From positions 35,195 to 99,194 of the forward strand of contig DATKAE010000032.1 in the NCBI GenBank assembly GCA_035498405.1: a DNA stretch of 64,000 bases, in the 5' to 3' direction. Shown here piece after piece: positions 3,256-22,363 of this stretch. Position numbers and translations under genes: made by a program. This DNA is from Thermoanaerobaculia bacterium (lineage in GTDB: Bacteria; Acidobacteriota; Thermoanaerobaculia; UBA5066; Gp7-AA6). The first letter of the stretch is position 1. Every line of letters starts with the position of its first letter. The notes under the pieces were generated by a model. That model had not been told where the DNA came from, searched no databases, and saw nothing but the letters and a program-made list of their open reading frames with translations.

Positions 3256-4203
3256 ATGCCTCCGCGAAAGAGAAAGAAACAAGCCGACTCCGCCTCGCGG
3301 GGCCTCTCGGCGCCCGAGGTGGCGACAGGGTCGGCTCCGGCGAGCCTCACGGCGCTTCGCGAAGCGATCGAGGGGGACGGCGGCTCGGTCCTCGCCGCCT
3401 ACCGGGACCCGCTCGGCGGCCACTGGCAGCTGTTCGCCGCGCTACCCATCGAGCGTGTCGAGCCGACTCCGTTCCAGCGCGACCTCTCCGAAGCCCACGT
3501 CACGCGTCTGGCCCGCGTCGTCGATGGGCTCGGGCGATTCTTGGACCCGATCATCGCCGTCCGCACGCCGGAGGGCCAGTACTGGACGCCCAACGGCAAT
3601 CATCGGCTCTCCGCGATGAAGCGGCTCGGCGCCCGGTCCGTCGTCGCGCTCGTTCTGCCCGAGCGCGACGTCGCCTACAAGATCCTCGCGCTGAACACCG
3701 AGAAGGCGCACAACCTGCGGGAGAAGGCGCTCGAGGTCATCCGCATGGCGCGCGACCTCGCCGGACGGGATGGAGCGCCCGAGCGGCAATACGCGCTCGA
3801 GTTCGAGGAGGCGGCGTTTCTCACCCTCGGAATCTGTTACGAGAAGAACGGCCGGTTCGCGGGCGGCGCATACCATCCGCTTCTCAAGCGGGTAGACGAG
3901 TTTCTCGCCGAGCCCCTCCCCGGCGCTCTCGCCATTCGCGAGGGGCGGGCGGCGCGACTCCAGGAGCTCGAGGAGGCCGTGTCCGCCGCAATTCTGGGGT
4001 TGAAGGAACGCGGGTTCGAGAGCCCCTACCTGCGGGCATTCGTCGTCGCGCGGATCAATCCGTTGCGCTTCTCCAAGGCCGAGAAGCCCTCTTTCGACGG
4101 GACGCTCGAGAAGATGATCACGGCCGCGAAGAAGTTCAAGCCCGAATCGGTCAAAGCCGAGCAGGTCGCCCGAGCCGCGGGGGCCCCGGAGGAGACTTCG
4201 TAA
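3256..4203 (+). CDS. ParB/Sulfiredoxin-like nuclease-domain protein with an uncharacterised C-terminal domain
   Basis: N-terminal basic tract (PPRKRKKQ). ParB N-terminal domain signature (IERVEPTPFQRDLSEAHVTRLARVV...IIAVRTPEGQYWTPNGNHRLSAMKRLG) is followed by a roughly 170-aa helical C-terminal region. Confidence 0.6.
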   Translation: MPPRKRKKQADSASRGLSAPEVATGSAPASLTALREAIEGDGGSVLAAYRDPLGGHWQLFAALPIERVEPTPFQRDLSEAHVTRLARVVDGLGRFLDPIIAVRTPEGQYWTPNGNHRLSAMKRLGARSVVALVLPERDVAYKILALNTEKAHNLREKALEVIRMARDLAGRDGAPERQYALEFEEAAFLTLGICYEKNGRFAGGAYHPLLKRVDEFLAEPLPGALAIREGRAARLQELEEAVSAAILGLKERGFESPYLRAFVVARINPLRFSKAEKPSFDGTLEKMITAAKKFKPESVKAEQVARAAGAPEETS

Positions 4204-4259
4204 CCGAAGAACGACGCGCGGGTCGGTCGGTTGCTGTCGCGCCGGGACATAATCGGTCC

Positions 4260-5309
4260 ATGATCGTGGTCCCCCACCCCTTCGGACTCCACCGCAGCCT
4301 CGATCCGCCGGGAGTGCTGCCCCAATCGGCCCGGCGGCTCGACTCGACGCCGCGTGCTCTCGAGAACGAAATCGCCGTGGCCGTTCGCGCCCTGAACGTC
4401 GACTCCGCCTCCTTCCGGCAGATGCGCGAGACGGAGCGATCGACCGGCGAAACGGTCGAGCAGCAGGTGCTTCGCATCGTCGGCGAGCGCGGGAAGATGC
4501 AGAACCCGGTCACCGGCTCGGGCGGGATCTTCTTGGGCGAGGTCCGCGAGGTCGGCGCCCGGCATCCGGCCGCCGGAAACCTCCGGCCGGGAGAGCGGAT
4601 CGCGTCGCTCGTTTCGCTCTCCTTGACGCCGCTGTCCATCCAACGCATCAAGGCCGTGATCGCGTCCTCCGAGAGGATCGAGCTCGAGGGAACGGCGATT
4701 CTCTTCGAGCGTACCCTCTGGGCGAGGCTCCCCGGCGATTTTCGCGAGGAAGTCGCGCTCGCCGCTTTCGACGTGGCGGGGGCACCGGCCGCCGTTCTGC
4801 GCCGGGCGGGCGCGGACCAGACGGTCGTCGTGCTCGGAACGGGGAAGGCCGGCCTCCTCTGCCTGGCTGCGGCGCGCGAGGCCGTCGGGCCCGCGGGCAA
4901 GGTCTTCGCGGTCGACCCGTCGGAGGCCGCCTCGGCCCGGGCTCGGGGCGTCGGCGACGCGGACGCCGTCTTCACGATCGACGCCCGGGACCCCATCGCC
5001 GTTCATTCGGCGCTCCAGGAGGCGACGCGGAGCGGTCTCGCGGACTTGGTCGTCAATGCGGTCAACGCCCCGGGGACCGAGATCGCCAGTGTGCTCGCTT
5101 CGAAGGAGGAGGGAACCGTTCTCTTCTTCGGCATGGCGACCTCCTTCCAGGCCGCGGCCCTGGGCGCGGAAGGCCTGGCGCACCCGGCGACTCTTCTGAT
5201 CGGCAATGGCTACGTTCCGGGGCATGCCGAAGCGGTCCTGAACCTGCTCCGCCGCCGCCCGAGGCTGCGAACCGCCTTCGAGTCGCTCTGCTCGCTCGGT
5301 CCGCCTTGA
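4260..5309 (+). CDS. kdd: L-erythro-3,5-diaminohexanoate dehydrogenase (lysine fermentation pathway)
   Basis: 349 aa. N-terminal region (NEIAVAVRALNVDSASFRQ, MQNPVTGSGGIFLG) resembles the Kdd family. A central Rossmann motif VVVLGTGKAGLLCLAAA is present. It lies immediately upstream of kamDE-kal-kce. Confidence 0.6.
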   Translation: MIVVPHPFGLHRSLDPPGVLPQSARRLDSTPRALENEIAVAVRALNVDSASFRQMRETERSTGETVEQQVLRIVGERGKMQNPVTGSGGIFLGEVREVGARHPAAGNLRPGERIASLVSLSLTPLSIQRIKAVIASSERIELEGTAILFERTLWARLPGDFREEVALAAFDVAGAPAAVLRRAGADQTVVVLGTGKAGLLCLAAAREAVGPAGKVFAVDPSEAASARARGVGDADAVFTIDARDPIAVHSALQEATRSGLADLVVNAVNAPGTEIASVLASKEEGTVLFFGMATSFQAAALGAEGLAHPATLLIGNGYVPGHAEAVLNLLRRRPRLRTAFESLCSLGPP

Positions 5310-6238
5310 GCGAAGCGGCGCGCGCCCTGACGGAGCGGATCCTCGCCGCCCAGTCCCGACGGGTGGCGTTCCTCGGCCTCGCCAAGAACGCGGGAAAGAC
5401 GACGGCCCTCGTCGCGACGCTCGGCGAGCTGTCCCGCGTCGGGATCGCCGCGGGCGCGACGTCCGTCGGGCGCGACGGCGAGGACTTCGACGCCTTGACC
5501 GGCGAGCCCAAGCCTCGATTCCGCCTTTGGCCGGGCCAGCTCGTGGCCTCGGCCGAAAGCACGCTCGATGGGACGACCCTCTCCTTGACGGTGCTGGCGC
5601 GGCTTCCCTTTCCGACCCGCTTCGGGCCTGTCGCCGTCGCTCGCGTCGGAACGCCCGGTGAGCTCGAGGTGATGGGGCCAACGACGGCGTCGCAGACGGC
5701 GCAGACCGCCTCGGCCCTCGAGGCCGCGGGAGCCCGCGTGGTATTGCTCGACGGCGCCTTCGGCCGAAGGGCATTCGCTTCGGCGCGAGTGGCCGACGGA
5801 ATCGTCCTCGCGGTCGGAATGTCGGCCGGGCGGAGCCTGGAGAGTGTCCTCGAAAGGGCGCGCTTTGCCGCCGACTTGATTCAGTTGCCGACGAACTTCG
5901 CCGGCCGCCGCCGGACGATCGACGGAGCGCTGACCGACGAGCTGCTCCACGAGCTGCCACCGGAGCCCGGTGAAACTCTCGTGGCCCAGGATTTCGCCTC
6001 GGTCTTTCTCTCCGCGTCGGGGGTCCGAGACTTGAGGCAACGAGGCATCGGCCTGGCAGTCGAGCGACCGGCTCGCCTGATCGCGGTCACGGCGAACCCC
6101 TCGGCGCCGGGGCGCCCTCCCCTGCCCGCCAGGGCGTTCTTCGAGGCGCTCGCCGGCACTCTGCCGGGCATCGCGATCTTCGACCTGGAGGCGAGTCTGT
6201 CGAGCGTCGAGCCGCGAGCGGGAGAGAAGGACCGATAA
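5306..6238 (+). CDS. P-loop NTPase with deviant Walker A (CobQ/BioD/MinD-ParA-like nucleotide-binding fold), function unknown
   Basis: TTG start overlaps the kdd stop (TTGA). N-terminal VAFLGLAKNAGKTTALVATLGEL resembles KGGxGKTT-type deviant Walker A; a possible Walker B lies at RVVLLDGAF. Family assignment is tentative. Confidence 0.45.
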   Translation: MSEAARALTERILAAQSRRVAFLGLAKNAGKTTALVATLGELSRVGIAAGATSVGRDGEDFDALTGEPKPRFRLWPGQLVASAESTLDGTTLSLTVLARLPFPTRFGPVAVARVGTPGELEVMGPTTASQTAQTASALEAAGARVVLLDGAFGRRAFASARVADGIVLAVGMSAGRSLESVLERARFAADLIQLPTNFAGRRRTIDGALTDELLHELPPEPGETLVAQDFASVFLSASGVRDLRQRGIGLAVERPARLIAVTANPSAPGRPPLPARAFFEALAGTLPGIAIFDLEASLSSVEPRAGEKDR

Positions 6239-6261
6239 GGGCGCGACAACGGCCCCATCCG

Positions 6262-7206
6262 TTACCAGCTGACGCGCAACGCGGCCCCATCGGGAATGGG
6301 AACGACCTCGAGCGTCGTCTTCGGCGCGGCCGTCTCGACACCGGAAGTTTCCGCGCGGTGGCGCCGGACGAGAAAGCGCCCCGTCGCCGTGGCGAAGAGG
6401 GCCCCGGTGACGACGTCGCTGAAGAAGTGCGCCCTGTCGTTGATCCGGTCGCAGGCGACGACGAACGCGAGCCCGTAGGCGAGGGTAGGGATGATCCACC
6501 CGGGCGCGCGCATCGCGATCACGGAGGACACGGCGAAGGCCTGGGTCGCGTGGCCCGAGGTGAAGGAGTTGTGCCCGGAGAAGGGGTCGAAGATCGTTTC
6601 CCCATTGGACTGGTTCGGCCGATAGCGGCCGGCGACCGGCTTGATCACCAGGTTGGTGAAGGCTCCCGCGATGATCGCCGTCTCGAGCGCGTCTCGTCCC
6701 ATGTCCCGCACATCGCTGTCCCCGGCCACGAGGCCGATGGCCAGAAGCCCGCCGGCCACGGCAAATCCGCCACCCGCGCCGTACCAGGAGGTCCCGCTCG
6801 AGACGCTGTTGGTGAAGTTTGACCGGTGCTTCGCGAACAGGTCGTAGACGGCCTTATCGGACCAGAAGGCGCCCCCGATCATCGCGGCCGCGCCCACGGC
6901 GTGCCAGCCGTCTCGAGCGTCCCAGTGAAAGGGCGCCACCACGAGAGCGGCGGTGTCCGAGCCGTAGCGCTTCGCCTCGTTCCAGAGGGCATTGCCGACC
7001 ACCTTCAAGACCGGGGGCTTGGCCGGAGAGGCAGGGGCCTGCTCCGATTGGCCGGTTTCGACCGGGTCGAAAGCCGGGCAATCCTCTAGCTCGACGGCCG
7101 CCGCACGGCTGGAGACGAGGAGAAGCACGAGGAAAGTGAGAAATTCGGATCGGGCCCGAGGCCACCGCGCCGCGGACCACAAACCCAACCCGCTACTCGT
7201 TGGCAA
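6262..7206 (-). CDS. secreted PAP2-superfamily phosphatase (class A acid phosphatase-like)
   Basis: Signal-peptide-like N-terminus (FLTFLVLLLVSSRAAAV). All three PAP2 motifs are present: KPVAGRYRP (KX6RP), FTSGHAT (PSGH) and DRAHFFSDVVTGA (SRX5HX3D). Confidence 0.75.
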   Translation of the reverse strand: MPTSSGLGLWSAARWPRARSEFLTFLVLLLVSSRAAAVELEDCPAFDPVETGQSEQAPASPAKPPVLKVVGNALWNEAKRYGSDTAALVVAPFHWDARDGWHAVGAAAMIGGAFWSDKAVYDLFAKHRSNFTNSVSSGTSWYGAGGGFAVAGGLLAIGLVAGDSDVRDMGRDALETAIIAGAFTNLVIKPVAGRYRPNQSNGETIFDPFSGHNSFTSGHATQAFAVSSVIAMRAPGWIIPTLAYGLAFVVACDRINDRAHFFSDVVTGALFATATGRFLVRRHRAETSGVETAAPKTTLEVVPIPDGAALRVSW

Positions 7207-7282
7207 GACTCGCCCGCCTCGGAATACGCCAACCCGATCCGGTGTGCCTGTATTTCCGGGCCCCGGCTATACTGCCCCGTCG

Positions 7283-8842
7283 ATGCCCCCCAAGCTCGGT
7301 CTTTCGGCGGAGCGAATCGAGAACTGCCGGCGCCTCGCCGGGAAAGTCGCCGACGGTGTTCGAAGGGAGACGGAGCCGTTCACCACCGTTTCCACCGAAC
7401 GCGCGGTCTTGCGACTCCTGGGCGTCGATGGGGTGGATGAGCAGGACGTTCCGATCCCCAACCGAGTCGTCGAGTCCCTGCGGGCGACGGGCAAGCTCGC
7501 CCGCGGCGCCGCCGTGTGGCTGGGAAGCGCGTTGGCGGCCGGAGACTCGGGCCCGACAGAGGCCGCACGGCGGCTCTCGGATCCGTCCCAGGCGAAGGGA
7601 ATCTCGGAGCATCCGCGGTGGCGAGAGGCGCTCGCCCCACTGGTGGCTTCGACCCTCGGACGCATCCGGGGCAACGCCGCCGAACGCCGGCGGCGCCTGG
7701 CGGCGCACCCGCCGGACGAAGAGCCGCTTCTGTACGCCATCGTCGCCACGGGAAACATCTACGAAGACATCATTCAGGCCGAGGCGGCGGCCCGCGCCGG
7801 CGCGCAGTGCATCGCGGTCATCCGATCGACCGCGCAGTCGCTGCTCGACCACGTCCCTCACGGAGCGACCACCAGCGGCTTCGGCGGGACCTTCGCGACC
7901 CAGGAAAACTTTCGCCTCATGCGGGCGGCGCTCGATCGGATCGAGCCAGAGATCGGGCGCTCCGTGCGCCTGGTCAACTACTGCTCGGGACTGTGCATGC
8001 CCGAGATCGCGGCCATGGGGGCCTTCGAGCGCCTCGACATGATGTTGAACGATGCCCTCTACGGCATCATCTTCAGGGACATCAATCCCTTCCGCACGCT
8101 GATCGACCAGAACTTTTCCCGTCGGATCAACGCCGCGGCCGGTATCGTGATCAACACGGGGGAAGACAACTATCTGACGACCGCCGACGCCGTCGAGCAG
8201 GCGCCGGCGGTGCTCGCCTCTCAGTTCATCAACGAGCGTTTGGCCCTGGACGCGGGGCTCGAGCGCTGGCAAATCGGCCTCGGGCACGCCTTCGAGATCG
8301 ACCCGGAGCTCGAGGATGGCCTTCTCCTCGAGATCGCCCAGGCCGAGGCGGCTCGCGAGATTTTCACCGAGTCGCCGCTCAAGTACATGCCGCCGACCAA
8401 GCACATGACGGGCAACGTCCTGCGCGGCTACCAGCAGAACGCGCTCTTCGTGCTCACGTCCGTCGCGACGGGACAGTCGATCCACCTGCTCGGCATGCTG
8501 ACGGAGGCCCTCCACACGCCGCTGCTCTCGGACCGGTGGCTGGCGATCGACCAGGCGAAGACGATCCGCACGAACGCCCGGCACCTCTCCGAGGAGATCG
8601 CCTTCGCGCCGCACGGCCGGATCGTCCGCCGCGCGCACGAAGTCCTCGAGGGAGCCGAGGCGCTCCTCGAGCGAATCGCCGGCCAGGGGCTTTTCGACGC
8701 GCTCGCCTCGGGCGTCTTCGCCGACACGCGACGGCCGCGCGAGAGCGGACGCGGCCGGGAGGGCGTTGTCGAGCGGCATCCGGAGTATTCGAACCCCTTC
8801 CGGGAGGCTTGGGACCGCGAGCCCGCGGGGGCGGCCTCGTGA
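7283..8842 (+). CDS. kamD: lysine 5,6-aminomutase alpha subunit
   Basis: 519 aa from an in-frame ATG inside track ORF 6992..8842. It is collinear with KamD-family proteins (PF09043-like region ...[15 protein letters not shown]...[49 protein letters not shown]...). Size matches KamD (about 515-520 aa). Confidence 0.8.
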
Positions 8843-9606
8843 GCGCGCCGCGGCGCGACCCGTCTCGCCTGCGTCCGTACGGCGACAAATGGAACGACGG
8901 CGTCGTACAGGTTTCCTTCACGCTTCCCTTGCCGCACTCGGGCCTGGCGATCGAAGCCGCCAAGCGGTACGCCGGCAAGATGGGCATTCGCGACCCCTAC
9001 GTGACGCTCGCCCAGCCGGTCGCGCCCGAATTCACGTTCTTCATCGTGTACGGCAAGGCGGTCCACGAAGTCGACGCGACCGCGATCTCGGCCGAAGAGG
9101 CCGCGGCGCCCGATCTCGGCCGGGAAGAAATCGACGCGGAAATCGCCAAGAGGTTCGGCCGGCGTCTCGTCGTTCTCGGCTGCGCGCTCGAGTCGGACGC
9201 TCATACGGTGGGCATCGACGCGATTTTCAATCCGAAGGGGTTCGCCGGCGACTATGGGCTCGAGCGGTACGCGGGGTTCGATGCGCGAAACCTCGGCGCC
9301 CAGGTGCCGGTCGAGAGGCTCGTTCGCCTGGCCCGCGACGCGAAGGCCGATGCCATCTTGGTCTCGGCCACGGTCACGCAGAACGAGATTCACGTCAGGC
9401 ACCTGACGGATCTGGTCGACATGCTGGAGGCCGAGCGCCTGCGCGACGACCTGATCCTGGTGGCGGGCGGCGCGCGCCTCGACCACGCGCTCGCCAAGGA
9501 GCTCGGCTACGACGCGGGGTTCGGGCCGGGCACGACGCCGGGACGGGTCGCCGCCTTCCTACTCGAGGAGATGACCCGCCGCCGGGCGGGGCCGGGGCCG
9601 AGTTGA
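8839..9606 (+). CDS. kamE: lysine 5,6-aminomutase beta subunit (B12-binding)
   Basis: GTG start overlaps the kamD stop (GTGA). 255 aa. A B12-binding Rossmann-like region is present ([24 protein letters not shown]...[15 protein letters not shown]...[10 protein letters not shown]). Size and position are typical of KamE. Confidence 0.8.
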
Positions 9607-9995
9607 CGAACGAGAAGGTGCAGCTGCGGCTGCGCGTTGGGGCGGAGCAGGCCCACTACGGCGGCGGGCTCGTCGACGGCGCCTATCTGTTGAAGCTCTT
9701 CGGCGACGCGGCCACGGAGTTGCTCGTCCGGCACGACGGCGACGAGGGGCTCTTCCGGGCCTACTCATCGGTCGATTTTCTGGCGCCGGTCGTGGCGGGC
9801 GATTACCTGGAGGTCGAGGCGGAGCTTCTCCGGGTCGGGCGGACCTCGCGCGAGATGCGCTTCGAGGCGCGCAAGGTCATTACGCCCGCCGGCGGCGCCG
9901 CCTCCTCCTCGGTCCCTGTCGACCCGCCCGTCGTGGTCGCGCGGGCCACGGGCACCTGCGTGGTCCCGCTCGGACGCCAGAGGCGGAAAGCTTGA
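9603..9995 (+). CDS. kal: 3-aminobutyryl-CoA ammonia-lyase (hotdog fold)
   Basis: TTG start overlaps the kamE stop (TTGA). 130 aa. [68 protein letters not shown]...FEARKV matches the Kal family nearly residue by residue. Confidence 0.8.
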
Positions 9996-10816
9996 GCGAG
10001 GAGGTCGTCATCACGGTTGCCGGCGTGGGGGCGGAGGTCACCCGCACCCAACAACCGAGCCTGCCGCTGCTGCCGCCGGAGGTCGGGGAGGAGTACCGCC
10101 GGGCGCACGAGGCCGGTGCCGCGATCGGCCACATTCACGGACGAAGACCCGACGGCACGCCGACCCAGGATCTCGCGACCTTCCGCGACTATTCGCAGGC
10201 GATCCGGGCGCGCTGTCCGATCATCCAGCAATTCTCCACCGGCGGCGCGGTCGGCATGAGTGTGGAGGAGCGCATCGCCGCGCTGGAGCTCCGGCCGGAG
10301 ATGGCGACGCTCACGCTCGGAACCTGCAATTTCGGCGACGACGTCTTCGAGAACTCGCTCCCGACGATTCGGACGATCCTCGAGCGCATGCGCAAGTTCG
10401 GCATCACGCCGGAGCTCGAGATCTTCGACGATGGCATGCTCGCCACCGCCGACGTGCTCCTTGCGAAGGGGCTGCTCACCGTCCCGCTCCATTTCGACTT
10501 CGTGTTGGGCGTGCCGGGAGCCGCCGCCGCCACACCCGAGAACCTGCTTCACTTCGCCCGGTCGATTCCGGCCGGCTGCACGTGGACGGTCGCGGGAATC
10601 GGCCGGCGCCAGACCGCCATGGCCACTCTGGCCGTCGCCATGGGCGGGCACGTGCGGGTCGGCTTCGAGGACAACATCTACTACCGCCGGGGGGAGCTCG
10701 CGGACTCCAACGCCCGCTTCGTCGAGCGCGTGGCGCGGATTGCCCGGGAAGTGGGGCGCGAGCCGGCCACGGTCGAACAGGCCCGGCACATCCTGCATTT
10801 GCCCGCTGCCGCGTGA
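9992..10816 (+). CDS. kce: 3-keto-5-aminohexanoate cleavage enzyme (BKACE/DUF849)
   Basis: TTG start overlaps the kal stop (TTGA). 274 aa. BKACE hallmarks are present: ITVAGVGAE...[76 protein letters not shown]. Confidence 0.85.
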
Positions 10817-12192
10817 GCACTGCGGCCTCAGTCGTTCCGGCCGGGGAGCTGCGCCGCGGACTGAACCTCTGGGACACGACGCTGCTCGTGCTCGGGCTGG
10901 TGTTGGGCGGCGGAATCTTCCTGACGCCTTCCTCGATCGCGCAGGCCCTTCCTTCCTCCAAGGCGATCCTCGCGGCCTGGGCGGTCGGCGGTTTGCTTTC
11001 GATCGCGGGTGGGCTCGTCTACGCGGAGCTGGGTGCCCTGATGCCGCAACCCGGCGGCATGTACCTCTACATCCGGGAGGCGTTCGGTTCGATGCCGGCT
11101 TTCCTGTACGCATGGGTCGCCTACTTCGTGATCTTGGCCGGCGCCGGCGCCGCGGTCTCCGTGGGATTCGCGGAGTATCTGTCCGTCTTCTTCCCGGCGC
11201 TCGGCACCAAGCGCGTGCTCTTCGGGTTGGCGGGCCTTCCGATTTCGGCCGGGCAGCTCACGGCGGTCGCGGCCACTCTCCTGCTTTCGGCCACCCATTA
11301 CGTGGGCGTGAAAGAGGGCTCCCGGATTCAGGGATTCTTCACACTCCTGATCGTGCTGGTGTTGGCGGGACTGGTCGTTGGCGGGGTCTTCGCCGCTGCG
11401 CCTGTCGCCGCGGCCAGCCCCGAGACCTCGACGCCGGTCACGGCCGCCGCCTTCGGCGGGGCAATGGTGGCGGTCTTCTGGTGTTACTACGGCTGGAACG
11501 AGATCGCCGCGGTGGCCGGCGAGGTGGCGAGGCCGCAACGCAATCTTCCCATCGCCTTGATCGCCGGGACGGGCCTCGTGACGTTCCTCTATGTCGGCGC
11601 GAACGCCGTGTTTCTCAAGGCCATTCCCGTGGCCGAATTGGCGAACACGGCGCAGCCGGCCGCGGTCGCCTCCGCGCGGCTCTTCGGCGGCGGCTCGACC
11701 GTGGCCATCGCCCTGGCAATTACCGCGGCGGCGTTCGGCTGCGTCTCCGCCGGCATCGTCCCGGGCCCGCGCATCGTGTTCGCCCTTTCCCGGGACGGCT
11801 TGTTCCCCAAGCCGTTCGGACGCGCGCATCCCCGCTTCCGCACGCCGTCCTTCGCCCTGGTCGTGCAGGCGGTTTGGATGTCCGTCCTGTGTCTGTCGGG
11901 GCGGTACGATCAGCTCTACACGTACGCGACCTTCGCCGTCATTCTGGCCTACACGGCGAGCGGAATCTCTCTCTTCGTCTTCCGCCGCTCGCGGCCGGAC
12001 GCCCCCCGACCCTACCGCTGTTGGGGATATCCCGTGATTCCGGCCGTCTTCGTCGCCACTTCTGCCCTCCTCGCGATCAACACCGTGCGCCAGCAGCCCC
12101 TGGAGACGGCGGCCGGGTTGGGCATCTTGCTCGCCGGAGTGCCGGTCTATTTCTGGATGCGCTCGCGAGCCGAGCAACGGAGGATCCCATGA
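10813..12192 (+). CDS. APC-superfamily amino-acid permease (probable lysine/basic amino-acid transporter)
   Basis: GTG start overlaps the kce stop (GTGA). 459 aa with about 12 TM segments. APC-family signature region is GGGIFLTPSSIAQAL...AGGLVYAELGALMPQPGGMYLY. Confidence 0.8.
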   Translation: MSTAASVVPAGELRRGLNLWDTTLLVLGLVLGGGIFLTPSSIAQALPSSKAILAAWAVGGLLSIAGGLVYAELGALMPQPGGMYLYIREAFGSMPAFLYAWVAYFVILAGAGAAVSVGFAEYLSVFFPALGTKRVLFGLAGLPISAGQLTAVAATLLLSATHYVGVKEGSRIQGFFTLLIVLVLAGLVVGGVFAAAPVAAASPETSTPVTAAAFGGAMVAVFWCYYGWNEIAAVAGEVARPQRNLPIALIAGTGLVTFLYVGANAVFLKAIPVAELANTAQPAAVASARLFGGGSTVAIALAITAAAFGCVSAGIVPGPRIVFALSRDGLFPKPFGRAHPRFRTPSFALVVQAVWMSVLCLSGRYDQLYTYATFAVILAYTASGISLFVFRRSRPDAPRPYRCWGYPVIPAVFVATSALLAINTVRQQPLETAAGLGILLAGVPVYFWMRSRAEQRRIP

Positions 12193-14634: not shown

Positions 14635-16116
14635 CTAGCGCGCGCCCGCGACGTCCCGGACGACCGCTTCGGTCACCGCCAGGCCGAAGCGGACGTTCGC
14701 GAGTGACAGCCGCTCGTCGTCGCCGTGACTTCGGTCATCCTCCGAGGAAAGGCGGAAGGGCTCGAAGCCGTAGACGACCATCCCGATCTCCCGCAGGTAT
14801 GTGGCGTCCGTGGTCGAGGTCAGCGGGGGCGTCAGGATCGGAACCCCCGGCTCGAACCGATCGCGCGCTCTCTGGATTGCGCGGAAGAGGTCCGTATCCG
14901 TGGACGAGACCGTCGCCGGCGACTGCTGCAGCACCTGGAAGCGCAGGGTGGGATCCTTCGAGGCCTCTTGCAGCGAGGCGCGGACCGTTTCCGGGTCTTC
15001 TCCCGGCAGCAGACGGCAGTCGAGGGTGGCCGAGGCCTCTCCCGGAATCACGTTGACCTTCTCGCTGCCCGATAGCCCCGTGATCGAGACGGTGGTCCGA
15101 AGGCAGGCGTTGCGAAACGGGTCGGCGAGCAGCAGCCGCCGGCTCTCGGGGTTGGACAGGGCCGCCCGGGGGTCGGCGAGCGCCCGGGCGAGCGCGCCCG
15201 ACTCGAGCCGCGAGAGTTGCCGAAAATAGTCTTCGACCGCCGGGATCAAGCGAATCGGCGTCTCGTAGGCGAGGAGACGGTCGAGGGCGCGGACCAGGCG
15301 GGCCACCGCTCCCTCCGGTTCGGGGATCGAGGCGTGGCCGGCCTTTCCGGTCGCGACCAGACGCAGCCAGAGCACGGACTTCTCCGTGACGTCGACGTTC
15401 CAGGCCTGTGTGCGACCCTCCTCGACGGAGATGGTCGCCCCTTCGGTCAGGGCGAACTCGGCATCTCGCAAACGGTCCCGATACCGGGCGATCATCGCGC
15501 GCACGCCGTTTTCCTTCCCTTCCTCCTCGTCGGCGGTTCCCAGAAACACCACGTCCCGATCGAGCTTCGCTCCCGAGCGCTTGAGCAAGAGGAGCGTCAT
15601 CAAGTGGCAGATCGCGGTGCCCTTCATGTCGGTTGCTCCGCGTCCCCAGACATAGCCGTCACGGATCTCCCCGGAAAACGGGGGCACGGTCCACCGCGCG
15701 GCGTCCGCCGGCACGACGTCCATGTGGCTGACCAGCAAGAGCGGCCGCTTCTTGCCGTTTCCCGGCAGTCGTCCGAGGACGTTGGCCCTGCCGTGGCCCA
15801 AGTCGAAGATCTCCGCCTCGATCCCCTCGGCCTGCAGGACGCCGAGCAGGAAGTCCGCCGCCGGGCGCTCGCGGCCCGGCGGATTCGTCGTGTCGATCTT
15901 GAGATAGGTCTGCAGGAGGGCGGTCGCCTCGCGCGCCGCGCTCTCCAGGTTCGGCTCGGCGGCGACGGAGTGACCCGTGCCCGCCGTCAGCAGAAGCGCG
16001 AGGGACGCCAGGATCGCCGCGATGCGAGGAACGCGACCGATGCTCGCCGGTGGCGTGAGCGCCGGGTGTCCCGGCCGGGAGACGAGCGCGCCCCTATCGC
16101 GTGACAGAAGCGCCAC
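14635..16116 (-). CDS. secreted M20-family metallopeptidase (carboxypeptidase/ArgE-DapE-like)
   Basis: M20 motifs are present: LVSHMDVVPA, GRGATDMKG, FLGTADEEEG, HAS...; signal peptide IAAILASLALLLTAG. Its stop is 1 nt from the convergent M28 stop. The GTG start at 16116 overlaps the upstream gene's 3' end, so the exact start is uncertain. Confidence 0.75.
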   Translation of the reverse strand: MALLSRDRGALVSRPGHPALTPPASIGRVPRIAAILASLALLLTAGTGHSVAAEPNLESAAREATALLQTYLKIDTTNPPGRERPAADFLLGVLQAEGIEAEIFDLGHGRANVLGRLPGNGKKRPLLLVSHMDVVPADAARWTVPPFSGEIRDGYVWGRGATDMKGTAICHLMTLLLLKRSGAKLDRDVVFLGTADEEEGKENGVRAMIARYRDRLRDAEFALTEGATISVEEGRTQAWNVDVTEKSVLWLRLVATGKAGHASIPEPEGAVARLVRALDRLLAYETPIRLIPAVEDYFRQLSRLESGALARALADPRAALSNPESRRLLLADPFRNACLRTTVSITGLSGSEKVNVIPGEASATLDCRLLPGEDPETVRASLQEASKDPTLRFQVLQQSPATVSSTDTDLFRAIQRARDRFEPGVPILTPPLTSTTDATYLREIGMVVYGFEPFRLSSEDDRSHGDDERLSLANVRFGLAVTEAVVRDVAGAR

Positions 16117-16837
16117 CCGAGCGCGCGTTCGTCACGCCGGGAGAAGCGACGACCGGCGACCACCAGGACAGAATTCGTTTCACGTACTGAACGGTCTCGC
16201 GGTACGGAGGCACACCCCCGAAGGAGTCCACCGCGCTCTCGCCGGCGTTGTAGGCCGCGAGCACGAGCTCCGGTCGCGCCTCGAACCGGTCCATGAGCTC
16301 CCGAAGATAACGAACGCCACCCCGCACGTTCGCGCGGGGGTCGAACGGCTTGCGGACGCCGAGGCGACGGGCGGTCGACGGCATGAGCTGCATCAAGCCC
16401 CGCGCCCCCTTGCGCGAGACGCTACGGGGCTCGTAGTTGGATTCCGCCCGGATGACCGCCGAAACCAGCGCGGCGTCGACGTTGTAGCGCCGCGCCTCCG
16501 CCTCGATGATCGCGTCGAACGGCGTCCCGTAGAGAGGCCGGCGATGCGCCGCGAAGGAGAGGTCGTAAACCGGAGGGGGTCCTTCCGGCCGGGGAATCTC
16601 CACCTTCTCCGAGACCTCGACCTCGTCGTCTAGGATTCGCTCGACTCGATCCAGATTCACCCGGTAGCTTCCGCCCCCGGGCAGAGAGATCTCGAGCTCC
16701 TCCCCCAGGACTCGGTACCCGGCCGCCTTGACCACCCGACCCTCCTGGAAGAGGATGAGCTCACCGCGCGAGGGCAAGGCGAGGAGAAGGCCCCCGAAAA
16801 GGATCCCCGCGGAAAGACGGCGTCGCATCCGGACAAT
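16094..16837 (-). CDS. secreted lytic transglycosylase (SLT domain)
   Basis: Internal ATG gives signal peptide MRRRLSAGILFGGLLLALPS. SLT catalytic region is ...AESNYEPRSVSRKGARGLMQLMPSTA...AYNAGESAV. Confidence 0.8.
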   Translation of the reverse strand: MVRMRRRLSAGILFGGLLLALPSRGELILFQEGRVVKAAGYRVLGEELEISLPGGGSYRVNLDRVERILDDEVEVSEKVEIPRPEGPPPVYDLSFAAHRRPLYGTPFDAIIEAEARRYNVDAALVSAVIRAESNYEPRSVSRKGARGLMQLMPSTARRLGVRKPFDPRANVRGGVRYLRELMDRFEARPELVLAAYNAGESAVDSFGGVPPYRETVQYVKRILSWWSPVVASPGVTNARSGGASVTR

Positions 16838-16845
16838 TTTACGGA

Positions 16846-17868
16846 TTAGCGCTCGGCCTTGCCACGACCCGACCTCCCCGCCCGGGGGTGGAATCGGTCG
16901 TAAACCGTCTGCAGGTGCGCGCGCGACACCAGGGTGTAGATCTGGGTGGTCGAGATGTCCGTGTGCCCCAGCATCATCTGCAGGGACCGCAGGTCCGCCC
17001 CGTGCTGGAGCAGATGGGTCGCAAAGGAGTGCCGCAGCCGGTGCGGAGTCAGCCGGCCTCGCAACCCGACCCCGCGGCCATACCCCTCGATGAGCTGCCA
17101 GAGCCGCTGCCGCGTCATCGCCCGCCCTCGAACCGACAGAAAGAGCGCCGGGGCACCGCGTCGGTCGAGTCCCGGGCGAACCGTCTGCAGATACCTTCGC
17201 AGCCACCGCGCGGCGGACTGGCCAAAGGGCACGAGGCGCTCCTTGCCTCCCTTTCCCGTCACGCGCAGCATCCGCTCCTCCAGGTCCACCCTCTCGCGCG
17301 GCAGTTGGGCGATTTCCGATACCCGCAGGCCGGAGGCGTACAACAGCTCGAGCATCGCGCGGTCCCTCACTCCGAGAGGGCTCGAATCGTCCGGCGCCCG
17401 CAGGAGCGTCTCCACCTCCCTCTCGGTCAGCGGCTTGGGAAGGGCGAGCCCGGTTCGCGGACTGTGTAGGTGGGCCGTCGGATCTTCGGCGTGTTGCAGA
17501 TGCGCCGCCGCGAACGCATAGAAGCTGCGCAGGGCCGAGAGGGAGCGCGCCGCCGACCGGGACGAGATTCCGCGCGACCGTTGCTCACGCAAGTAACGGG
17601 AGAGTTCCTCGCGGGCGACACGCGAGGAAAGCCTTTGCCGCCGGAGCCATTGCCCGTATGCCGCCAGGTCGCGGCCGTAGGCGGCGACACTGGCCGGCGA
17701 CAGCCCGCGCTCGACCGAGAGGTGATCTAGATACGTCGGGAGCTCGCGATCGAGAAAATCGCCGCCCGTGCGGGACTCTTTCCCGCACCGCCCGGAGCGT
17801 CGGGGAGGGACGGACTCGCTACGCCCGGTAGGCAAGACGGGCCGATGGCGCGGCCGTCGCGTCGTCAA
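16846..17868 (-). CDS. xerD: tyrosine site-specific recombinase XerD/XerC-like (true start probably about 17811 or later)
   Basis: N-terminal SAM-like domain (FLDRELPTYLDHLSVERGLSPASVAAYGRDL). Catalytic domain carries R..HxxR..Y (LRHSFATHLLQHGADLRSLQMMLGHTDISTTQIYTLV). Confidence 0.75.
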   Translation of the reverse strand: MTTRRPRHRPVLPTGRSESVPPRRSGRCGKESRTGGDFLDRELPTYLDHLSVERGLSPASVAAYGRDLAAYGQWLRRQRLSSRVAREELSRYLREQRSRGISSRSAARSLSALRSFYAFAAAHLQHAEDPTAHLHSPRTGLALPKPLTEREVETLLRAPDDSSPLGVRDRAMLELLYASGLRVSEIAQLPRERVDLEERMLRVTGKGGKERLVPFGQSAARWLRRYLQTVRPGLDRRGAPALFLSVRGRAMTRQRLWQLIEGYGRGVGLRGRLTPHRLRHSFATHLLQHGADLRSLQMMLGHTDISTTQIYTLVSRAHLQTVYDRFHPRAGRSGRGKAER

Positions 17869-19166
17869 TGGGCCGCTTCGGCCGGCGCGAGGCTCGCGAC
17901 GACGGCGAGGATCTCCTCATCGGACAAGACCTGGTCACTCTGCTTGGCTCTCTGGAAGACGGCGTTGATCAGTTCCGGACGGGCCTCGATTCCGTGCGTC
18001 TCGAGCCAGCACTGCACGTTCGAAACGCCGCTCATCGGCCCCACCTCGATCGTCTGCCGCCGCCCGACCATCGCCGCAGGCACTCCCGAATAGACTCGGT
18101 CGGCCAACCAGTCGTCGCCCTTCTTGCGCGCCTTGATGATCGCCGCGGCGTGAACTCCCGTCCCCGTGCGAAAGGCGTCGCGGCCCACGATGGGATAGTT
18201 GTCGGGGATCCGCACGCCCGTGGCCTCCGAGACTCGGGTGCAGTACTCGCTCAACTTCGTCAGGTCGCGATCGATCCATCCGAGCAGCTGCAAGTTCACC
18301 AGCAGCTGATCCATCGGAGTGTTGCCCACCCGTTCGCCGATCCCGAGGGCGCAACCGTGCACGCGGTGGGCACCGGCCTCGAGGGCCCACAGCGCGTTGG
18401 TCACGCCGAGGCCGCGATCCTGATGCCCGTGCCAGTCGATCCGGACCTCCGGACCCACCTCGTCCACGACGCCCGAGACGAAGCGGATGACGTTGCGAAC
18501 CCCGTTGGGTGTGGCGTGGCCCACGGTGTCGCAGACACAGACCCGGCTGGCTCCGGCACGAATCGCCACCGTGTAAAGGGCCCGGATGTGGTCGGGATGG
18601 GCGCGGGTCGTGTCTTCCGTGACGTACATCACGGGCAAGCCCTCGCGCACCGCCATCGAAACGGCATCTTCGGTCAGGCGCAGCAAACGATCGAGGTTCC
18701 AATCCTCAGCGTACTGCCGAATCGGGGAGGACCCGATGAAACAGGCCACCTCGACCGGGATGCCCACGCGCTGCGAGATCTCGACGATCGGAAGGATGTC
18801 CGCCGCGACCGTCCGCGCCGCGCAGTTCGGCCGGATCTTCATCCGAGACGTCTGGATCTCGCGAACCAGCCTCTCGACGGTCGAGACCACATGGGGCCCC
18901 GCCCCCGGCAGGCCGACGTCTGCCGACTCGATTCCGAGCGACTCCATCAGGTGCAGGATGGCGACTTTCTGGTCGATCGAGGGACTGCGCACCGAGGGGG
19001 ATTGGAGACCGTCGCGCAGGGTCTCGTCGTCGAGCTCGACCTTGCCACGGGCCGGAGAGACCGCTCCGCCGGCTCGGTTCCAGTCGTAGATGAGTTCGGA
19101 TTCGGATGGGTGCACGCCCATTTTCGCCTTCGGCATCAGTTTATGCCGGCGTCGGACGCCGATCAA
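17865..19166 (-). CDS. 2-isopropylmalate synthase-family (LeuA type-2/actinobacterial-yeast-like catalytic core) protein lacking the C-terminal regulatory domain
   Basis: HMGL-like TIM barrel: ELDDETLRDGLQSPS, HGHQDRGLGVTNALWALEAGAHRVHGCALGIGERVGNTPMDQLL. About 420-433 aa. Track start at 19166 is TTG; alternative ATGs lie at 19136 and 19121. Confidence 0.6.
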   Translation of the reverse strand: MIGVRRRHKLMPKAKMGVHPSESELIYDWNRAGGAVSPARGKVELDDETLRDGLQSPSVRSPSIDQKVAILHLMESLGIESADVGLPGAGPHVVSTVERLVREIQTSRMKIRPNCAARTVAADILPIVEISQRVGIPVEVACFIGSSPIRQYAEDWNLDRLLRLTEDAVSMAVREGLPVMYVTEDTTRAHPDHIRALYTVAIRAGASRVCVCDTVGHATPNGVRNVIRFVSGVVDEVGPEVRIDWHGHQDRGLGVTNALWALEAGAHRVHGCALGIGERVGNTPMDQLLVNLQLLGWIDRDLTKLSEYCTRVSEATGVRIPDNYPIVGRDAFRTGTGVHAAAIIKARKKGDDWLADRVYSGVPAAMVGRRQTIEVGPMSGVSNVQCWLETHGIEARPELINAVFQRAKQSDQVLSDEEILAVVASLAPAEAAH

Positions 19167-19179
19167 CCGAAACGCGGTC

Positions 19180-20346
19180 CTAGTTGCTGCCGCCCCCGAG
19201 AAAAAGCTCGGCCGTGATCGCGAACGTCAGCTCCGGCGAGCCGAGAAAGTTGCTCAGGCCCCCGCCGAAGTCGCCGTCCCGTTTGACCGCCAGCGTGCGC
19301 GAGGGTCCGCCATGCGTGTCGACTAGGGTCATCGTCTCATTGCCCCAGGCCATTCGGAGGGAGGCCCGAACCCGCAGCCTTTCGGCGAAGGCGTGCCGAT
19401 ACGACAGGTCCCAGAAGATCTCCTTCACACTCGAGTCTGGCCGAAACCCGGCGTCGTACGCGACCGACTCCGTGCCCAGGACGGCCAACGGCGAGAAGGG
19501 AAGCTCTTCGCGGTCGTAGGTCATTGCGAGAACCAGGTCGTTTCGAGGCCAGGAGTAGCCGACCGACCACCGGAGGGCCGCCAGGGAAGCATCCGCCTTC
19601 AGCTGATTCTGTTGGAAGTCCGGCAAGGAGGCCTGCTGAACGCTGAGGGAGCCGGCCACCCGCTCGGCGTGCAGGACGAGCGTCCACCGATCGCGGCGCC
19701 AACGGGCCTCGAGCTCCGCGCCGAAGAGATTTCCCGATCCGTCGTTGGAGGATCCGGCCTCGTCGACGCCGCCTCTCGCGTTGACGTAACGGAAGGCCGC
19801 GGAGGCCTCGAAGTTCGGCCAGCGATGCCTCCAACCCGCCGCGAAGTCGAGCCGCTCGGCGCTGATGGTGCGCTGCTCGCTGATCGAGTGATCCGAGAGG
19901 CCGACGTTGACCGTGTCCGTGGCAATGTCGTCTCGCCTCTCGATGGCGACTTCGACCGAGTCGCGCTGCCCGATGGGAATCCGTCCGATCCCCGCGAAGT
20001 TCTCGTAGCGGCCCGTTCCCGTGGCCGTGATCTGCGGATTGTCGGTATTCGCGCGCCGCGCCTGCTCGTCGTGGGAGGGAGCGAGGGCCAGAAGGACCTG
20101 CCATTGCCACGCGGGCGTTCCGGCTCCGAGATCCCCCGCGGGCTGGCGATTGTTTCCCATCCCGACGAGGACGAACTTGGGCGTGACGTCCGAAACGTCC
20201 TTTTGGGCGGTGGCCGAATCGTACTTCCGAGCCAGAGTGGAGTAGGAGAAGCCCAGCTCCCCCGCGAGGCCCGGGCGCAAGGGCATGTCCACGCCGAAAA
20301 GCACGCTCGCGCAGTAAACGCAGGCACCGATGAGCTCGATTCCCAT
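19180..20346 (-). CDS. putative outer-membrane beta-barrel protein, paralog 1 (uncharacterised family)
   Basis: 388 aa from an internal ATG. C-terminal two-thirds is built of alternating amphipathic beta-strand-like segments (WTLVLHAERV, LRWSVGYSW, LVLAMTYD, LRVRASLRMAW, LTFAITAELF). N-terminus MGIELIGACVYCASVLFGV is a paralog of the next gene. Confidence 0.5.
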   Translation of the reverse strand: MGIELIGACVYCASVLFGVDMPLRPGLAGELGFSYSTLARKYDSATAQKDVSDVTPKFVLVGMGNNRQPAGDLGAGTPAWQWQVLLALAPSHDEQARRANTDNPQITATGTGRYENFAGIGRIPIGQRDSVEVAIERRDDIATDTVNVGLSDHSISEQRTISAERLDFAAGWRHRWPNFEASAAFRYVNARGGVDEAGSSNDGSGNLFGAELEARWRRDRWTLVLHAERVAGSLSVQQASLPDFQQNQLKADASLAALRWSVGYSWPRNDLVLAMTYDREELPFSPLAVLGTESVAYDAGFRPDSSVKEIFWDLSYRHAFAERLRVRASLRMAWGNETMTLVDTHGGPSRTLAVKRDGDFGGGLSNFLGSPELTFAITAELFLGGGSN

Positions 20347-20401
20347 CTCGATCTGCCTCCTCTGCCGCGGAAAAAAGGGGACGCAATCTCGTTCGAGCGG
20401 G

Positions 20402-21574
20402 TCAGTGTCCTCCGCCGATCGCGAAATCGGCGCCGACGTAGAGAGTGAACTCGGGAAACCCCAGGTTCTCGGAGAAGCCGCCGCCGAATCGGCCGCGCCG
20501 GTCGACATCCAGGGTGATCGGGGGCCGGTCGCCCAGCGCGTCCGTCAGCGTCACCTTCTCGTGCCCCGTCGCCATGCGCATGCCGATGCGGGCGCGGATC
20601 GAGGGCGTAAACGTGTATCGGACCGTCAGGTCGCCATAGAACTCGCGGTTGTTCGAGTCCGGATGGTATCCGCCGTCGAACGCCACCGTCTCGACACCGA
20701 GCACGGCCAGCGATACGAACGGGAGCCGCTGGCGGTCGAAGGTGGCCGTCAGGAAGAGGTCCGTCCGCGGCCAGGAGTACCCGAGCCCGAACCGGAGGGC
20801 CTGGAGCGTGGCGTTCTGAGAGGATTTGCGCGCCTGGAAGGCCGGAAAGCTCTCCTCGAGCACGTCGATCGAGCCCGTGAGCCACTGGAAATCGAGCGTC
20901 GTCGTCCAGCCCCCCGTCCGATATCGGCCCTCGAGTCCGCCTCCGAAGATCCCACCCGAGCTATTCATGTAGGCGCCGGCGGTCGCGTTATAGCCGGTCA
21001 CCTTGGCGTACTGAACTCTGGCCGCCACTTCCAGATCCTTCCAGCGCTGCCGCCAGCCCAGGGCTCCGTCCGCCCGCTCGGCGGTCAGGTTGCGCTGCTC
21101 GCTGATCTGATGTTCTTGTCCACCGATGTTGAGCAGGTCGGTCGCCTTCTCGGTTCGGCGATCGAGGACCGCTTCGAGAGAGCCCTGGCCTCCGATCGGA
21201 AAGCGCCCGAGCAGCGCGAAGTTCTCGTAGCGTCCCGTACCGTCCGTCTCGATCGGCTCCTGCGTCGAGGTGGCCGTACGGATCTGGTTGTCGTGGGAGG
21301 GCGCGAGGGCGACGCGCACCCGCCACTCGAAGGCCGGGGTTCCGGCACCGAGTCCGACGGGAGGGGGCCGTGCTTCGCCCACGCCGACGAGGAGGAACTT
21401 GGGCGTGACCTCGGAGATATCGGCGCTCTCGCCGGAGTTCGCCGGCGGGAGAAGACGGTCCAGTGTCGCGTAAGAGAAGCCGATCTCGGTCCCTAGGCCA
21501 TTTCGCGGGGGAAGCTCCGCACCGAGCAGGTATGGGGCGCAGAAGATGCAGGCGCTGACGAGATCGATCCCCAT
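20402..21574 (-). CDS. putative outer-membrane beta-barrel protein, paralog 2 (tandem duplicate of 19180..20346)
   Basis: 390 aa. Collinear with paralog 1 across shared blocks: MGIDLVSACIFCA, TPKF.LVG.G, LAPSHD, GTGRYENFA, ISEQR, beta-strand-rich C-terminus ending FAIGGGH. An in-frame stop 3 codons upstream fixes the ATG start. Confidence 0.5.
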   Translation of the reverse strand: MGIDLVSACIFCAPYLLGAELPPRNGLGTEIGFSYATLDRLLPPANSGESADISEVTPKFLLVGVGEARPPPVGLGAGTPAFEWRVRVALAPSHDNQIRTATSTQEPIETDGTGRYENFALLGRFPIGGQGSLEAVLDRRTEKATDLLNIGGQEHQISEQRNLTAERADGALGWRQRWKDLEVAARVQYAKVTGYNATAGAYMNSSGGIFGGGLEGRYRTGGWTTTLDFQWLTGSIDVLEESFPAFQARKSSQNATLQALRFGLGYSWPRTDLFLTATFDRQRLPFVSLAVLGVETVAFDGGYHPDSNNREFYGDLTVRYTFTPSIRARIGMRMATGHEKVTLTDALGDRPPITLDVDRRGRFGGGFSENLGFPEFTLYVGADFAIGGGH

Positions 21575-21580
21575 GCGGAG

Positions 21581-22363
21581 TCAGCGTCCGGTGAAGCGGG
21601 GGGCGCGCTTTTCCAGGAACGCCGTCATGCCTTCCTTCATGTCCTCGGTTGCCGCGCAGAGGCCGAAGAGCGTCGCCTCCAGCACGAGCCCCTCGGCGGT
21701 CGGGACCTCGATGCCCCGGCGGATCGCCTCCATCGCATACCGGCAGGCGGCCGGCCCGTTGGCGGCGATCTTTCGCGCGAGCTCCTTGGCTCCTGCGAGC
21801 GCTTGACCGGCCGGAACCACGCGGTTCACGAGCCCGATGCGGTGCGCCTCCGAGGCCGTCACGCCTTTCTCGGCCGTGAGAATCAGCTCCATCGCGCGCG
21901 CCACGCCAACCAGCCGCGCGAGGCGCTGGGTTCCGCCGTAACCCGGAAGGATTCCCAGTGAGGTTTCCGGCAGGCCCATCTTCGCGTTCTCGGAAGCGAC
22001 TCGCAGGCAGCAGGCCAGCGCGAGCTCGAGCCCCCCGCCATAGGCATAGCCGTTGATCGCCGCAATCGTGGGGACACTCATATCCGCGAGCCGATCGAGC
22101 ACGGCTTGCCCGCGCAGAGCGTGCTCGCGGCCCTGGACCGGCGTCAGTTTCGCGAGCTCGCCGATGTCGGCGCCCGCGATGAAGGCCTTTTCCCCGGCGC
22201 CGGTGACCACGAGACAACGCAGGGACGGGTCCTCGGCCGCCTCGGCGAACGCCTCGTCTAAGGCCGCGATGACCTCCGCATTCAAGGCGTTCAGCTTCTC
22301 GGGACGATCCACCGTGACCGTGCGAACTCCCTCCTCCGTCTCGATTCTGACGTTCGGGCTCAT
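21581..22363 (-). CDS. crt: enoyl-CoA hydratase / 3-hydroxybutyryl-CoA dehydratase (crotonase)
   Basis: Crotonase-fold motifs: VVTGAGEKAFIAGADI, AAINGYAYGGGLELALACCLRVA, MGLPETSLGILPGYGGTQRL. Confidence 0.85.
   Translation of the reverse strand: MSPNVRIETEEGVRTVTVDRPEKLNALNAEVIAALDEAFAEAAEDPSLRCLVVTGAGEKAFIAGADIGELAKLTPVQGREHALRGQAVLDRLADMSVPTIAAINGYAYGGGLELALACCLRVASENAKMGLPETSLGILPGYGGTQRLARLVGVARAMELILTAEKGVTASEAHRIGLVNRVVPAGQALAGAKELARKIAANGPAACRYAMEAIRRGIEVPTAEGLVLEATLFGLCAATEDMKEGMTAFLEKRAPRFTGR

Follow-up and report, generated by a model that had tools for sequence, protein, structure and literature searches.

The DNA analyzed here (the window) is a stretch of 64,000 nucleotides (nt) of contig DATKAE010000032.1 from a Thermoanaerobaculia bacterium (Acidobacteriota). 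It contains an operon that comprises kamD and kamE, the genes of lysine 5,6-aminomutase (5,6-LAM), as well as kdd, kal and kce of the diaminohexanoate pathway. The KamDE enzyme of the window is intact and of the B12 type, since both subunits passed the curated NCBIfam cut-offs and KamE carries the cobalamin motif DAHTVG. The gene that is the subject of this report, designated kamB, starts within the stop codon of kdd and encodes a P-loop nucleoside triphosphatase (NTPase) related to KamB, a putative reactivase subunit of this mutase. The coordinates of kamB and of the neighboring features are given in Table 1.

The DNA at the kdd/kamB junction reads ccgccTTGAgcg, and the TTG start codon of kamB (5306-5308) overlaps the TGA stop codon of kdd (5307-5309), resulting in a 4-nt overlap. 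The position of the start inside the kdd stop, noticed in a first-pass annotation of this DNA, was confirmed on the sequence. Residues 20-42 of the translation are VAFLGLAKNAGKTTALVATLGEL. The G+C content of the window is ~70%, and long open reading frames (ORFs) frequently arise by chance in such DNA, e.g. a 644-aa antisense ORF at positions 4026-5960. The frame at 5306-6238 was recognized as the true coding frame because of its codon-position G+C content (GC1/GC2/GC3 of 0.72/0.57/0.85, resembling the neighboring genes), its match to an NCBIfam profile (see below), the 284 KamB homologues retrieved in a word-indexed search, and the 1634 representative clusters identified at E≤1e-3 in an exhaustive HMMER search, 1207 of them at E≤1e-10. 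The start position of the homologues is equivalent to that of the window KamB.

The NTGA overlap of kdd and kamB is present in 33 of 41 Acidobacteriota loci. Similar 4-nt overlaps, with TTG or GTG as the start codon, were identified in the window at positions 5306 (kdd/kamB), 8839 (kamD/kamE), 9603 (kamE/kal), 9992 (kal/kce) and 10813 (kce/permease). Since the overlap also joins other gene pairs of the operon, it is an operon-wide trait that does not single out the pair kdd/kamB. No Shine-Dalgarno-like sequence was found upstream of most of the NTGA-overlap starts in the window operon.

The window KamB matched a single NCBIfam profile, NF052386 (“lysine 5,6-aminomutase reactivase subunit KamB”, an equivalog), with an E-value of 1.4e-61 and a score of 208.3 bits, and no Pfam family at E≤0.01. 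With the same profile, 382 bits were obtained for KamB of Sedimentibacter (locus L071, 9965-11026) and 292 bits for KamB of a member of the Solirubrobacteraceae. The closest relatives in the genome collection are encoded by Thermoanaerobaculia/Acidobacteriota metagenome-assembled genomes (MAGs), with identity of up to 72%, and all 120 KamB homologues listed are annotated as “hypothetical protein”, with no Pfam domain.

The conserved positions were read from two alignments, A2 (36 sequences) and A4, spanning four phyla; a further alignment, A3 (12 sequences), was used for the scan of the genome collection. Among the 36 members of A2, which share 27-59% identity, the P-loop residues G24, K27, N28, G30, K31 and T32 are invariant. 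In the four-phyla alignment the window KamB has every invariant residue of the family (G24, K27, N28, G30, K31, T32, S53, G55, D57, G58, E59, D62, K69, P70, D149, G150, R154, N264, P265 and D293), and the family motifs GLAKNxGKT, SxGRDGExxD, KP, DGAxxR and NP are all present. As judged from these sequence comparisons, the window gene is almost certainly a member of the KamB family in the evolutionary sense. The family has already been catalogued by NCBI; the window gene, and therefore the finding itself, is largely ordinary in this respect.

Table 1. Features of the kamB region of the window (positions refer to the 64,000-nt stretch).
Feature	Position	Strand	Evidence and remarks
kamB-like gene	5306..6238	+	310 aa, TTG start; predicted short-form KamB-family P-loop NTPase
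TTGA start/stop overlap kamB/kdd	5306..5309	+	Sequence; translational coupling
Walker A / P-loop G24-L-A-K27-N28-A-G30-K31-T32-T33 (GLAKNAGKTT)	5375..5404	+	Translation
Family-specific motif S53-x-G55-R-D57-G58-E59-x-x-D62	5462..5491	+	Start of predicted beta-rich insertion; invariant columns in A2 and A4; model secondary structure
Walker B-like strand VVLLD149-G150-A, followed by R154	5738..5758	+	D149, G150 and R154 invariant; strand 145-152 in model
Site of missing ~45-residue segment, between A199 and G200	5900..5905	+	Alignment A4; two hidden Markov model (HMM) match stretches
kdd, L-erythro-3,5-diaminohexanoate dehydrogenase	4260..5309	+	NF052381, 222.4 bits (cut-off 200); coupled, upstream of kamB
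ParB/Srx-fold-like protein, 315 aa	3256..4203	+	Noc E 6.9e-5, SerK E 2e-3; PDB: SerK (free serine kinase) E 0.04, SbnI E 1.2
PAP2-family phosphatase	6262..7188	-	Pfam PAP2 E 1.2e-18; between kamB and kamD
kamD	7283..8842	+	NF052384, 734.5 bits (cut-off 600); start set by 519-aa homologue in locus L001
kamE	8839..9606	+	NF052385, 327.5 bits (cut-off 280); Pfam OAM_dimer, B12-binding; DxHxxG at residue 120
kal	9603..9995	+	NF052388, 168.2 bits (cut-off 160); diaminohexanoate pathway, same operon
kce	9992..10816	+	NF052387, 382.2 bits (cut-off 382); diaminohexanoate pathway, same operon

The genomic context of KamB was examined in 80 loci retrieved when 185,579 species genomes were scanned (42 loci from Acidobacteriota/Thermoanaerobaculia, 29 from Solirubrobacterales, seven from Bacillota and two from Desulfobacterales), to which the window was added (81 loci). 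Neighboring genes were identified by tblastn with the window genes and with kamA, kamB and kamC of Sedimentibacter, and a gene was regarded as a neighbor when located within 10 kb of KamB. KamD/E were found near KamB in all 43 Acidobacteriota loci (the window counted), in 24 of the 29 Solirubrobacterales loci, in both Desulfobacterales loci, and in five of the seven Bacillota loci, with truncated contigs in the remaining two. KamC and KamA accompany KamB in six and seven of the Bacillota loci, respectively, and in none of the loci of the remaining three groups. Thus kamDE, present in 74 of the 81 loci, is the sole neighbor of KamB common to the four phyla, the seven exceptions including the two loci on truncated contigs. 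This co-occurrence across genomes had been named in the first-pass annotation as a check on a link between the gene and the mutase, and it was borne out in all four phyla.

The arrangement of the genes differs between the groups. In the window, kamB ends at position 6238 and kamD starts at position 7283, with an inverted PAP2 gene in between. The canonical Sedimentibacter locus comprises kdd, kamA, KamB (382 bits), KamC (NF052383, 568 bits), kamD and kamE. A third arrangement is the unit lysS-kamD-kamE-kamB of Solirubrobacterales (L043, positions 6089-10963, OY969106.1; ~23 similar loci), near which none of the genes kdd, kce, kal and kamA was found. The absence of other lysine-pathway genes from these units indicates that KamB is tied to the mutase KamDE itself and not to the pathway. 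As an observation in its own right, the units with lysS, which encodes lysyl-tRNA synthetase, place a lysine 5,6-aminomutase outside its known fermentation-pathway context.

The structure of the window KamB was predicted with AlphaFold2 using 30 homologues. The resulting model is confident and compact, with a predicted local distance difference test (pLDDT) score of 90.8 and a predicted template modeling (pTM) score of 0.90; a model of residues 1-198 only had a pLDDT of 86.6. Foldseek searches of the PDB with the full-length protein and with residues 1-198 yielded nothing at E≤1e-3. Proteins matched weakly by the full-length model (E ~5e-3, template modeling (TM) score ~0.3) included Soj, HypB, FtsY, MeaB, FleN, Wzc, MinD, Get3 and MobB. 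For residues 1-198, MeaB (2qm8_A) was the top match (E 7.7e-3, probability 0.87, TM 0.39), the best superposition was obtained with CapB/Wzc kinases (TM up to 0.54, probability up to 0.99), and Soj (2bek; TM 0.45, probability 0.92) and FtsY (TM 0.47) were also found. Most of the top matches, and all those of higher probability, are SIMIBI-class proteins (MeaB, KdpD-N, CapB/Wzc, Soj, FtsY, MobB). No significant match was obtained when PDB sequences were searched with profiles A1 and A2; ClpC (E 0.03) and the P-loop of MobB (E 0.5) came closest. According to the predicted model, KamB is a SIMIBI-class P-loop NTPase that forms a family of its own, with a beta-rich insertion (residues ~55-125) and a second alpha/beta half.

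The first-pass annotation had described a KGGxGKTT-like deviant P-loop of the CobQ/BioD/MinD-ParA fold and had suggested a structural comparison with MinD/ParA, BioD and CobQ. The P-loop class, now SIMIBI, held up in the Foldseek searches, while neither the KGGxGKTT motif nor a specific relationship to the MinD/ParA or BioD/CobQ family did, and by hhalign KamB shares nothing with MinD beyond the P-loop. The additional invariant lysine of KamB, K27, is located at position -4 relative to the P-loop K31 and not at -5, and hhalign places GVGKTT of MinD on NAGKTT of KamB; therefore, the P-loop of KamB is not the deviant Walker A of ParA/MinD (KGGxxGK[ST]). When the KamB profile was aligned with Escherichia coli proteins by hhalign, the matches were confined to the P-loop, with probabilities of 2.7% for BtuR (62 columns), 6.0% for YgfD and 0.8% for MinD.

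Three candidate families were rejected on these grounds. The ParA/CbiA/MinD family was discarded in view of the lysine register, off by one, the hhalign value for MinD and the lack of a Pfam ParA/CbiA/AAA_31 match. The G3E GTPases (MeaB/MMAA/ArgK) were discarded in view of the P-loop-only match to YgfD, the TM of 0.39 with MeaB and the absence of an NKxD motif, by which KamB is not a member of this group. The CobA/BtuR-type adenosyltransferases were discarded in view of the hhalign value for BtuR and their absence from the top 50 Foldseek matches.

An ATP-dependent helper protein of lysine 5,6-aminomutase, named E2, was described in the 1970s. The enzyme consists of a core, E1 (KamDE), and the auxiliary E2 of ~80 kDa, and recombinant KamDE is active but is subject to suicide inactivation, of which cob(III)alamin is the end state (PMC3958899; PMC9081730). 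Both reactivation and ATP-dependent regulation have been ascribed to E2, a sulfhydryl protein (PMC9081730). In 2011, unnamed “HP” and “mutS” genes were drawn, without comment, in lysine-fermentation gene clusters (PMC3149608).

Taking the family assignment and the gene context together, we propose, with a probability of roughly two in three, that the window gene is a short-form KamB orthologue acting as an ATP-dependent P-loop reactivase or accessory protein of the adenosylcobalamin- and pyridoxal 5'-phosphate-dependent KamDE. The putative reactivase role of KamB is supported by the curated annotation of NCBI and by the gene context. The suggestion of an ATP-dependent, E2-like reactivase had already been made from the sequence in the first-pass annotation; it gains support from NF052386, which carries the same name, and from the linkage to kamDE. 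That annotation had the right class of function, and it missed the catalogued family, the KamC subunit and the absence of KamC here.

In the proposed mechanism, KamDE would inactivate itself in turnover, with cob(III)alamin remaining bound. KamB would then bind the B12-carrying KamE/KamD complex, and the binding and hydrolysis of ATP would open it, so that the damaged cofactor may leave and fresh adenosylcobalamin may enter. This action of KamB would correspond to the ATP-dependent “E2” activity of the clostridial enzyme. With no KamC encoded nearby in the Thermoanaerobaculia lineage, KamB would either need no partner or have one encoded elsewhere.

Several observations weigh against this proposal. 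The score of the window KamB with NF052386 is 1.7 bits short of the curated cut-off of 210, so the threshold is missed, and the match is split into two stretches, the best of which aligns residues 20-196 with profile positions 1-177 (of 326). The split match and the marginal score are both due to the absence of ~45 internal residues, which canonical KamB has after residue 199 (A4, columns 206-250). The flanks on both sides of the missing segment do align, and its absence is a feature of the Acidobacteriota clade. The window KamB contains no cysteine, whereas E2 is described as a sulfhydryl protein. Five Solirubrobacterales orthologues (L045, L061, L069, L081 and L082), 55-66% identical to the kamDE-linked KamB, are unlinked to kamDE and are located beside ClpB, 2-oxoacid dehydrogenase E1 or glycosyltransferase genes, with no gene for a B12 enzyme within 5-10 kb. 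With E≤1e-5 as the tblastn limit, KamC was found neither in the window nor, up to 10 kb from KamB, in any of the 73 non-Bacillota loci, and no MutS-like gene was found anywhere in the 64 kb. A complex requiring KamC could therefore not form from these operons alone. In the searchable literature we found no biochemical study of KamB, the name leading to unrelated uses (rRNA methyltransferases, Kamchatka), and the genes of E2 are not named in the searchable 5,6-LAM literature of 2014, 2022 and 2025, including a 2025 study of the inactivated state.

The internal insert of KamB is of full length in Desulfobacterales and shorter in Solirubrobacterales, and neither group has KamC nearby. The idea that the length of the insert follows the presence of KamC was rejected for this reason.

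KamB might instead supply the cofactor, as an enzyme or loader that adenosylates enzyme-bound cobalamin at the expense of ATP, or it might sense ATP and regulate KamDE allosterically. Isolated E2 exhibited 5'-deoxyadenosylcobalamin (dAdoCbl) synthetase activity, labeled E1 from [8-14C]ATP and conferred allosteric activation by ATP (PMC3958899), and both the conserved P-loop and the invariant acidic motif SxGRDGExxD of KamB are consistent with such a role, which the close genomic link to kamDE fits equally well. However, the similarity to BtuR by hhalign is confined to the P-loop, the 50 best Foldseek matches of each model include no adenosyltransferase, and the name given by the NCBI curators is that of a reactivase subunit. 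We therefore regard a loader or regulator as unlikely compared with a reactivase.

The score below the NCBIfam cut-off, the ~45 missing residues and the lack of KamC nearby would also be expected if the short form were a decaying remnant of a KamBC system that has lost KamC, the internal segment and its function. Against such decay, the great majority of the 43 Acidobacteriota loci (56-74% identity) have an intact ORF, a few MAG loci giving split or partial tblastn matches, and the 66 invariant columns comprise all residues of the catalytic type. Moreover, the coupling to kdd is conserved, the codon-position G+C content is normal, the model is confident and compact, and the full-score KamB genes of Solirubrobacterales also lack KamC. 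A remnant is thus very improbable.

The first-pass annotation also pointed to a ParB/Srx-like protein encoded directly upstream of kdd and considered that it might form, with the P-loop protein, a ParB-like/ParA-like pair flanking a metabolic gene. The identification of the upstream protein was upheld by weak but concordant matches (Noc, SerK, SbnI); this conserved 315-aa protein belongs to no Pfam family and has NGNHR where SerK has DGHHR. The pairing was not upheld, and a ParA/MinD-type positioning ATPase with kdd merely in between is the least credible reading of KamB: the ParB/Srx-like gene does lie 57 nt upstream of kdd and near the cluster in 33 of 43 Acidobacteriota loci, and Soj, FleN, MinD and ParA are among the weak Foldseek matches, but the gene occurs in 0 of 38 loci of Solirubrobacterales, Desulfobacterales and Bacillota, where KamB stays beside kamDE, three Acidobacteriota loci (L013, L016 and L032) lack it although enough upstream sequence is available, the ParB/Srx-like product best matches the small-molecule kinases SerK and SbnI and not partition proteins, and KamB itself does not have the ParA signature lysine. 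The ParB/Srx-like gene is a lineage-specific neighbor and not a partner of KamB.

Returning to KamB as a reactivase of KamDE, two observations are modestly new: in the loci sampled, KamB outside Bacillota is as a rule encoded with no KamC nearby, and a compact KamB of Thermoanaerobaculia is missed by current annotation thresholds. The first of these leads to a testable idea in which KamB would be the core chaperone and KamC would have an accessory part. A wider form of this idea is tentative and, on balance, doubtful: KamB alone might be a universal, self-sufficient, nucleotide-driven chaperone or reactivase, with KamC as an add-on of anaerobic fermenters, and it might represent a third structural class of B12-enzyme chaperone, of which the compact, cysteine-free Acidobacteriota form would be the minimal version. 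With regard to a third class, KamB is a predicted SIMIBI P-loop protein with its own beta-insertion and no close relative in the PDB, whereas the other classes are the G3E GTPases (MeaB) and the ASKHA reactivases (DdrA/EutA).

Several neighboring genes were also examined. The PAP2 gene is confined to the eight loci nearest to the window (the window counted), and elsewhere kamB directly abuts kamD; the gene is interposed and does not belong to the KamB system. Downstream of kce, the operon continues with genes for an amino-acid permease, an M28 peptidase (with a TFR dimer domain) and an M20 peptidase. Neither kamA (lysine 2,3-aminomutase) nor kamC was found in the 64-kb window when it was examined by tblastn and ~35 of its ORFs were scanned with Pfam and NCBIfam profiles; up to 10 kb from the cluster, tblastn revealed no kamA in the Acidobacteriota and Solirubrobacterales loci either. 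3,5-Diaminohexanoate formed from beta-lysine is required by the enzymes of kdd, kce and kal, yet the operon is without kamA and has the permease and two peptidases instead.

On the minus strand, positions 17865-24727 of the window contain genes for a thiolase, a 3-hydroxyacyl-CoA dehydrogenase, an enoyl-CoA hydratase and an isopropylmalate/homocitrate-synthase-like (HMGL-like) protein. Two further proteins encoded in this block, of 388 aa (19180-20346) and 390 aa (20402-21574), have no Pfam or NCBIfam match. The block could carry the crotonyl-CoA formed by Kal on to acetyl-CoA. Directly after the M20 peptidase gene, at positions 16094-17868 (minus strand), there are genes for a tyrosine recombinase (Phage_integrase and SAM-like N domain) and an SLT transglycosylase. 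Since the same pair also follows the cluster in a relative (L003), it is probably of the XerC/D-like housekeeping type and does not mark the edge of a mobile element.

As a biocatalyst, lysine 5,6-aminomutase is of limited use because it kills itself in turnover. KamB is a curated candidate for the genes of E2, and it is KamB, not KamC, that travels with KamDE across four phyla. For experiments, the compact KamB of 310 aa would be a handy minimal case. Should KamB by itself reactivate KamDE, co-expression of the two could stabilize the enzyme for the production of beta-amino acids and diamines. With regard to annotation, the short KamB of Acidobacteriota falls just below the NCBIfam cut-off and has been left as “hypothetical protein” in all the public records listed here (120 homologues).

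Among the systems with which KamB can be compared, ParA/MinD/Soj share with it the broad class and an extra P-loop lysine; KamB differs from them in the register of this lysine, in the lack of a Pfam match and in that a ParB partner is not conserved. MeaB/MMAA/YgfD, the G3E GTPase chaperone of methylmalonyl-CoA mutase, is, like KamB, a SIMIBI P-loop protein encoded beside an adenosylcobalamin mutase. Unlike MeaB, KamB has four lysines only, none of them in an NKxD context, and it has a predicted beta-rich insertion that is absent from MeaB. The reactivases DdrAB/GdrAB and EutA (of diol/glycerol dehydratase and ethanolamine ammonia-lyase) catalyze the ATP-driven release of damaged cobalamin from suicide-inactivated B12 enzymes; a 1999 paper by Toraya and Mori is cited in this connection in PMC9081730. 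The job proposed for KamB, release of damaged cobalamin and reloading, would be the one that factors of the DdrAB and MeaB types perform for other B12 enzymes. These proteins are Hsp70/actin-like (ASKHA) ATPases and not P-loop proteins, and no such fold is present among the top 50 Foldseek matches of KamB.

KamC (NF052383, “lysine 5,6-aminomutase reactivase ATPase KamC”), which is MutS-like, is the partner gene of KamB in six of the seven Bacillota loci, and a “mutS” gene is drawn in the lysine clusters of Fusobacterium, Bacteroidetes and Cloacimonas (PMC3149608). KamB of Sedimentibacter (NF052386) shows 28-31% identity to the window protein (tblastn, alignment). The window KamB differs from this canonical form in its length (310 vs. 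~350 aa), in having no kamC after it and no kamA before it, and in the lack of cysteine. The two proteins share the motifs GLAKNxGKT, SxGRDGE, KP, DGAxxR and NP, and both are encoded beside kamDE and kdd.

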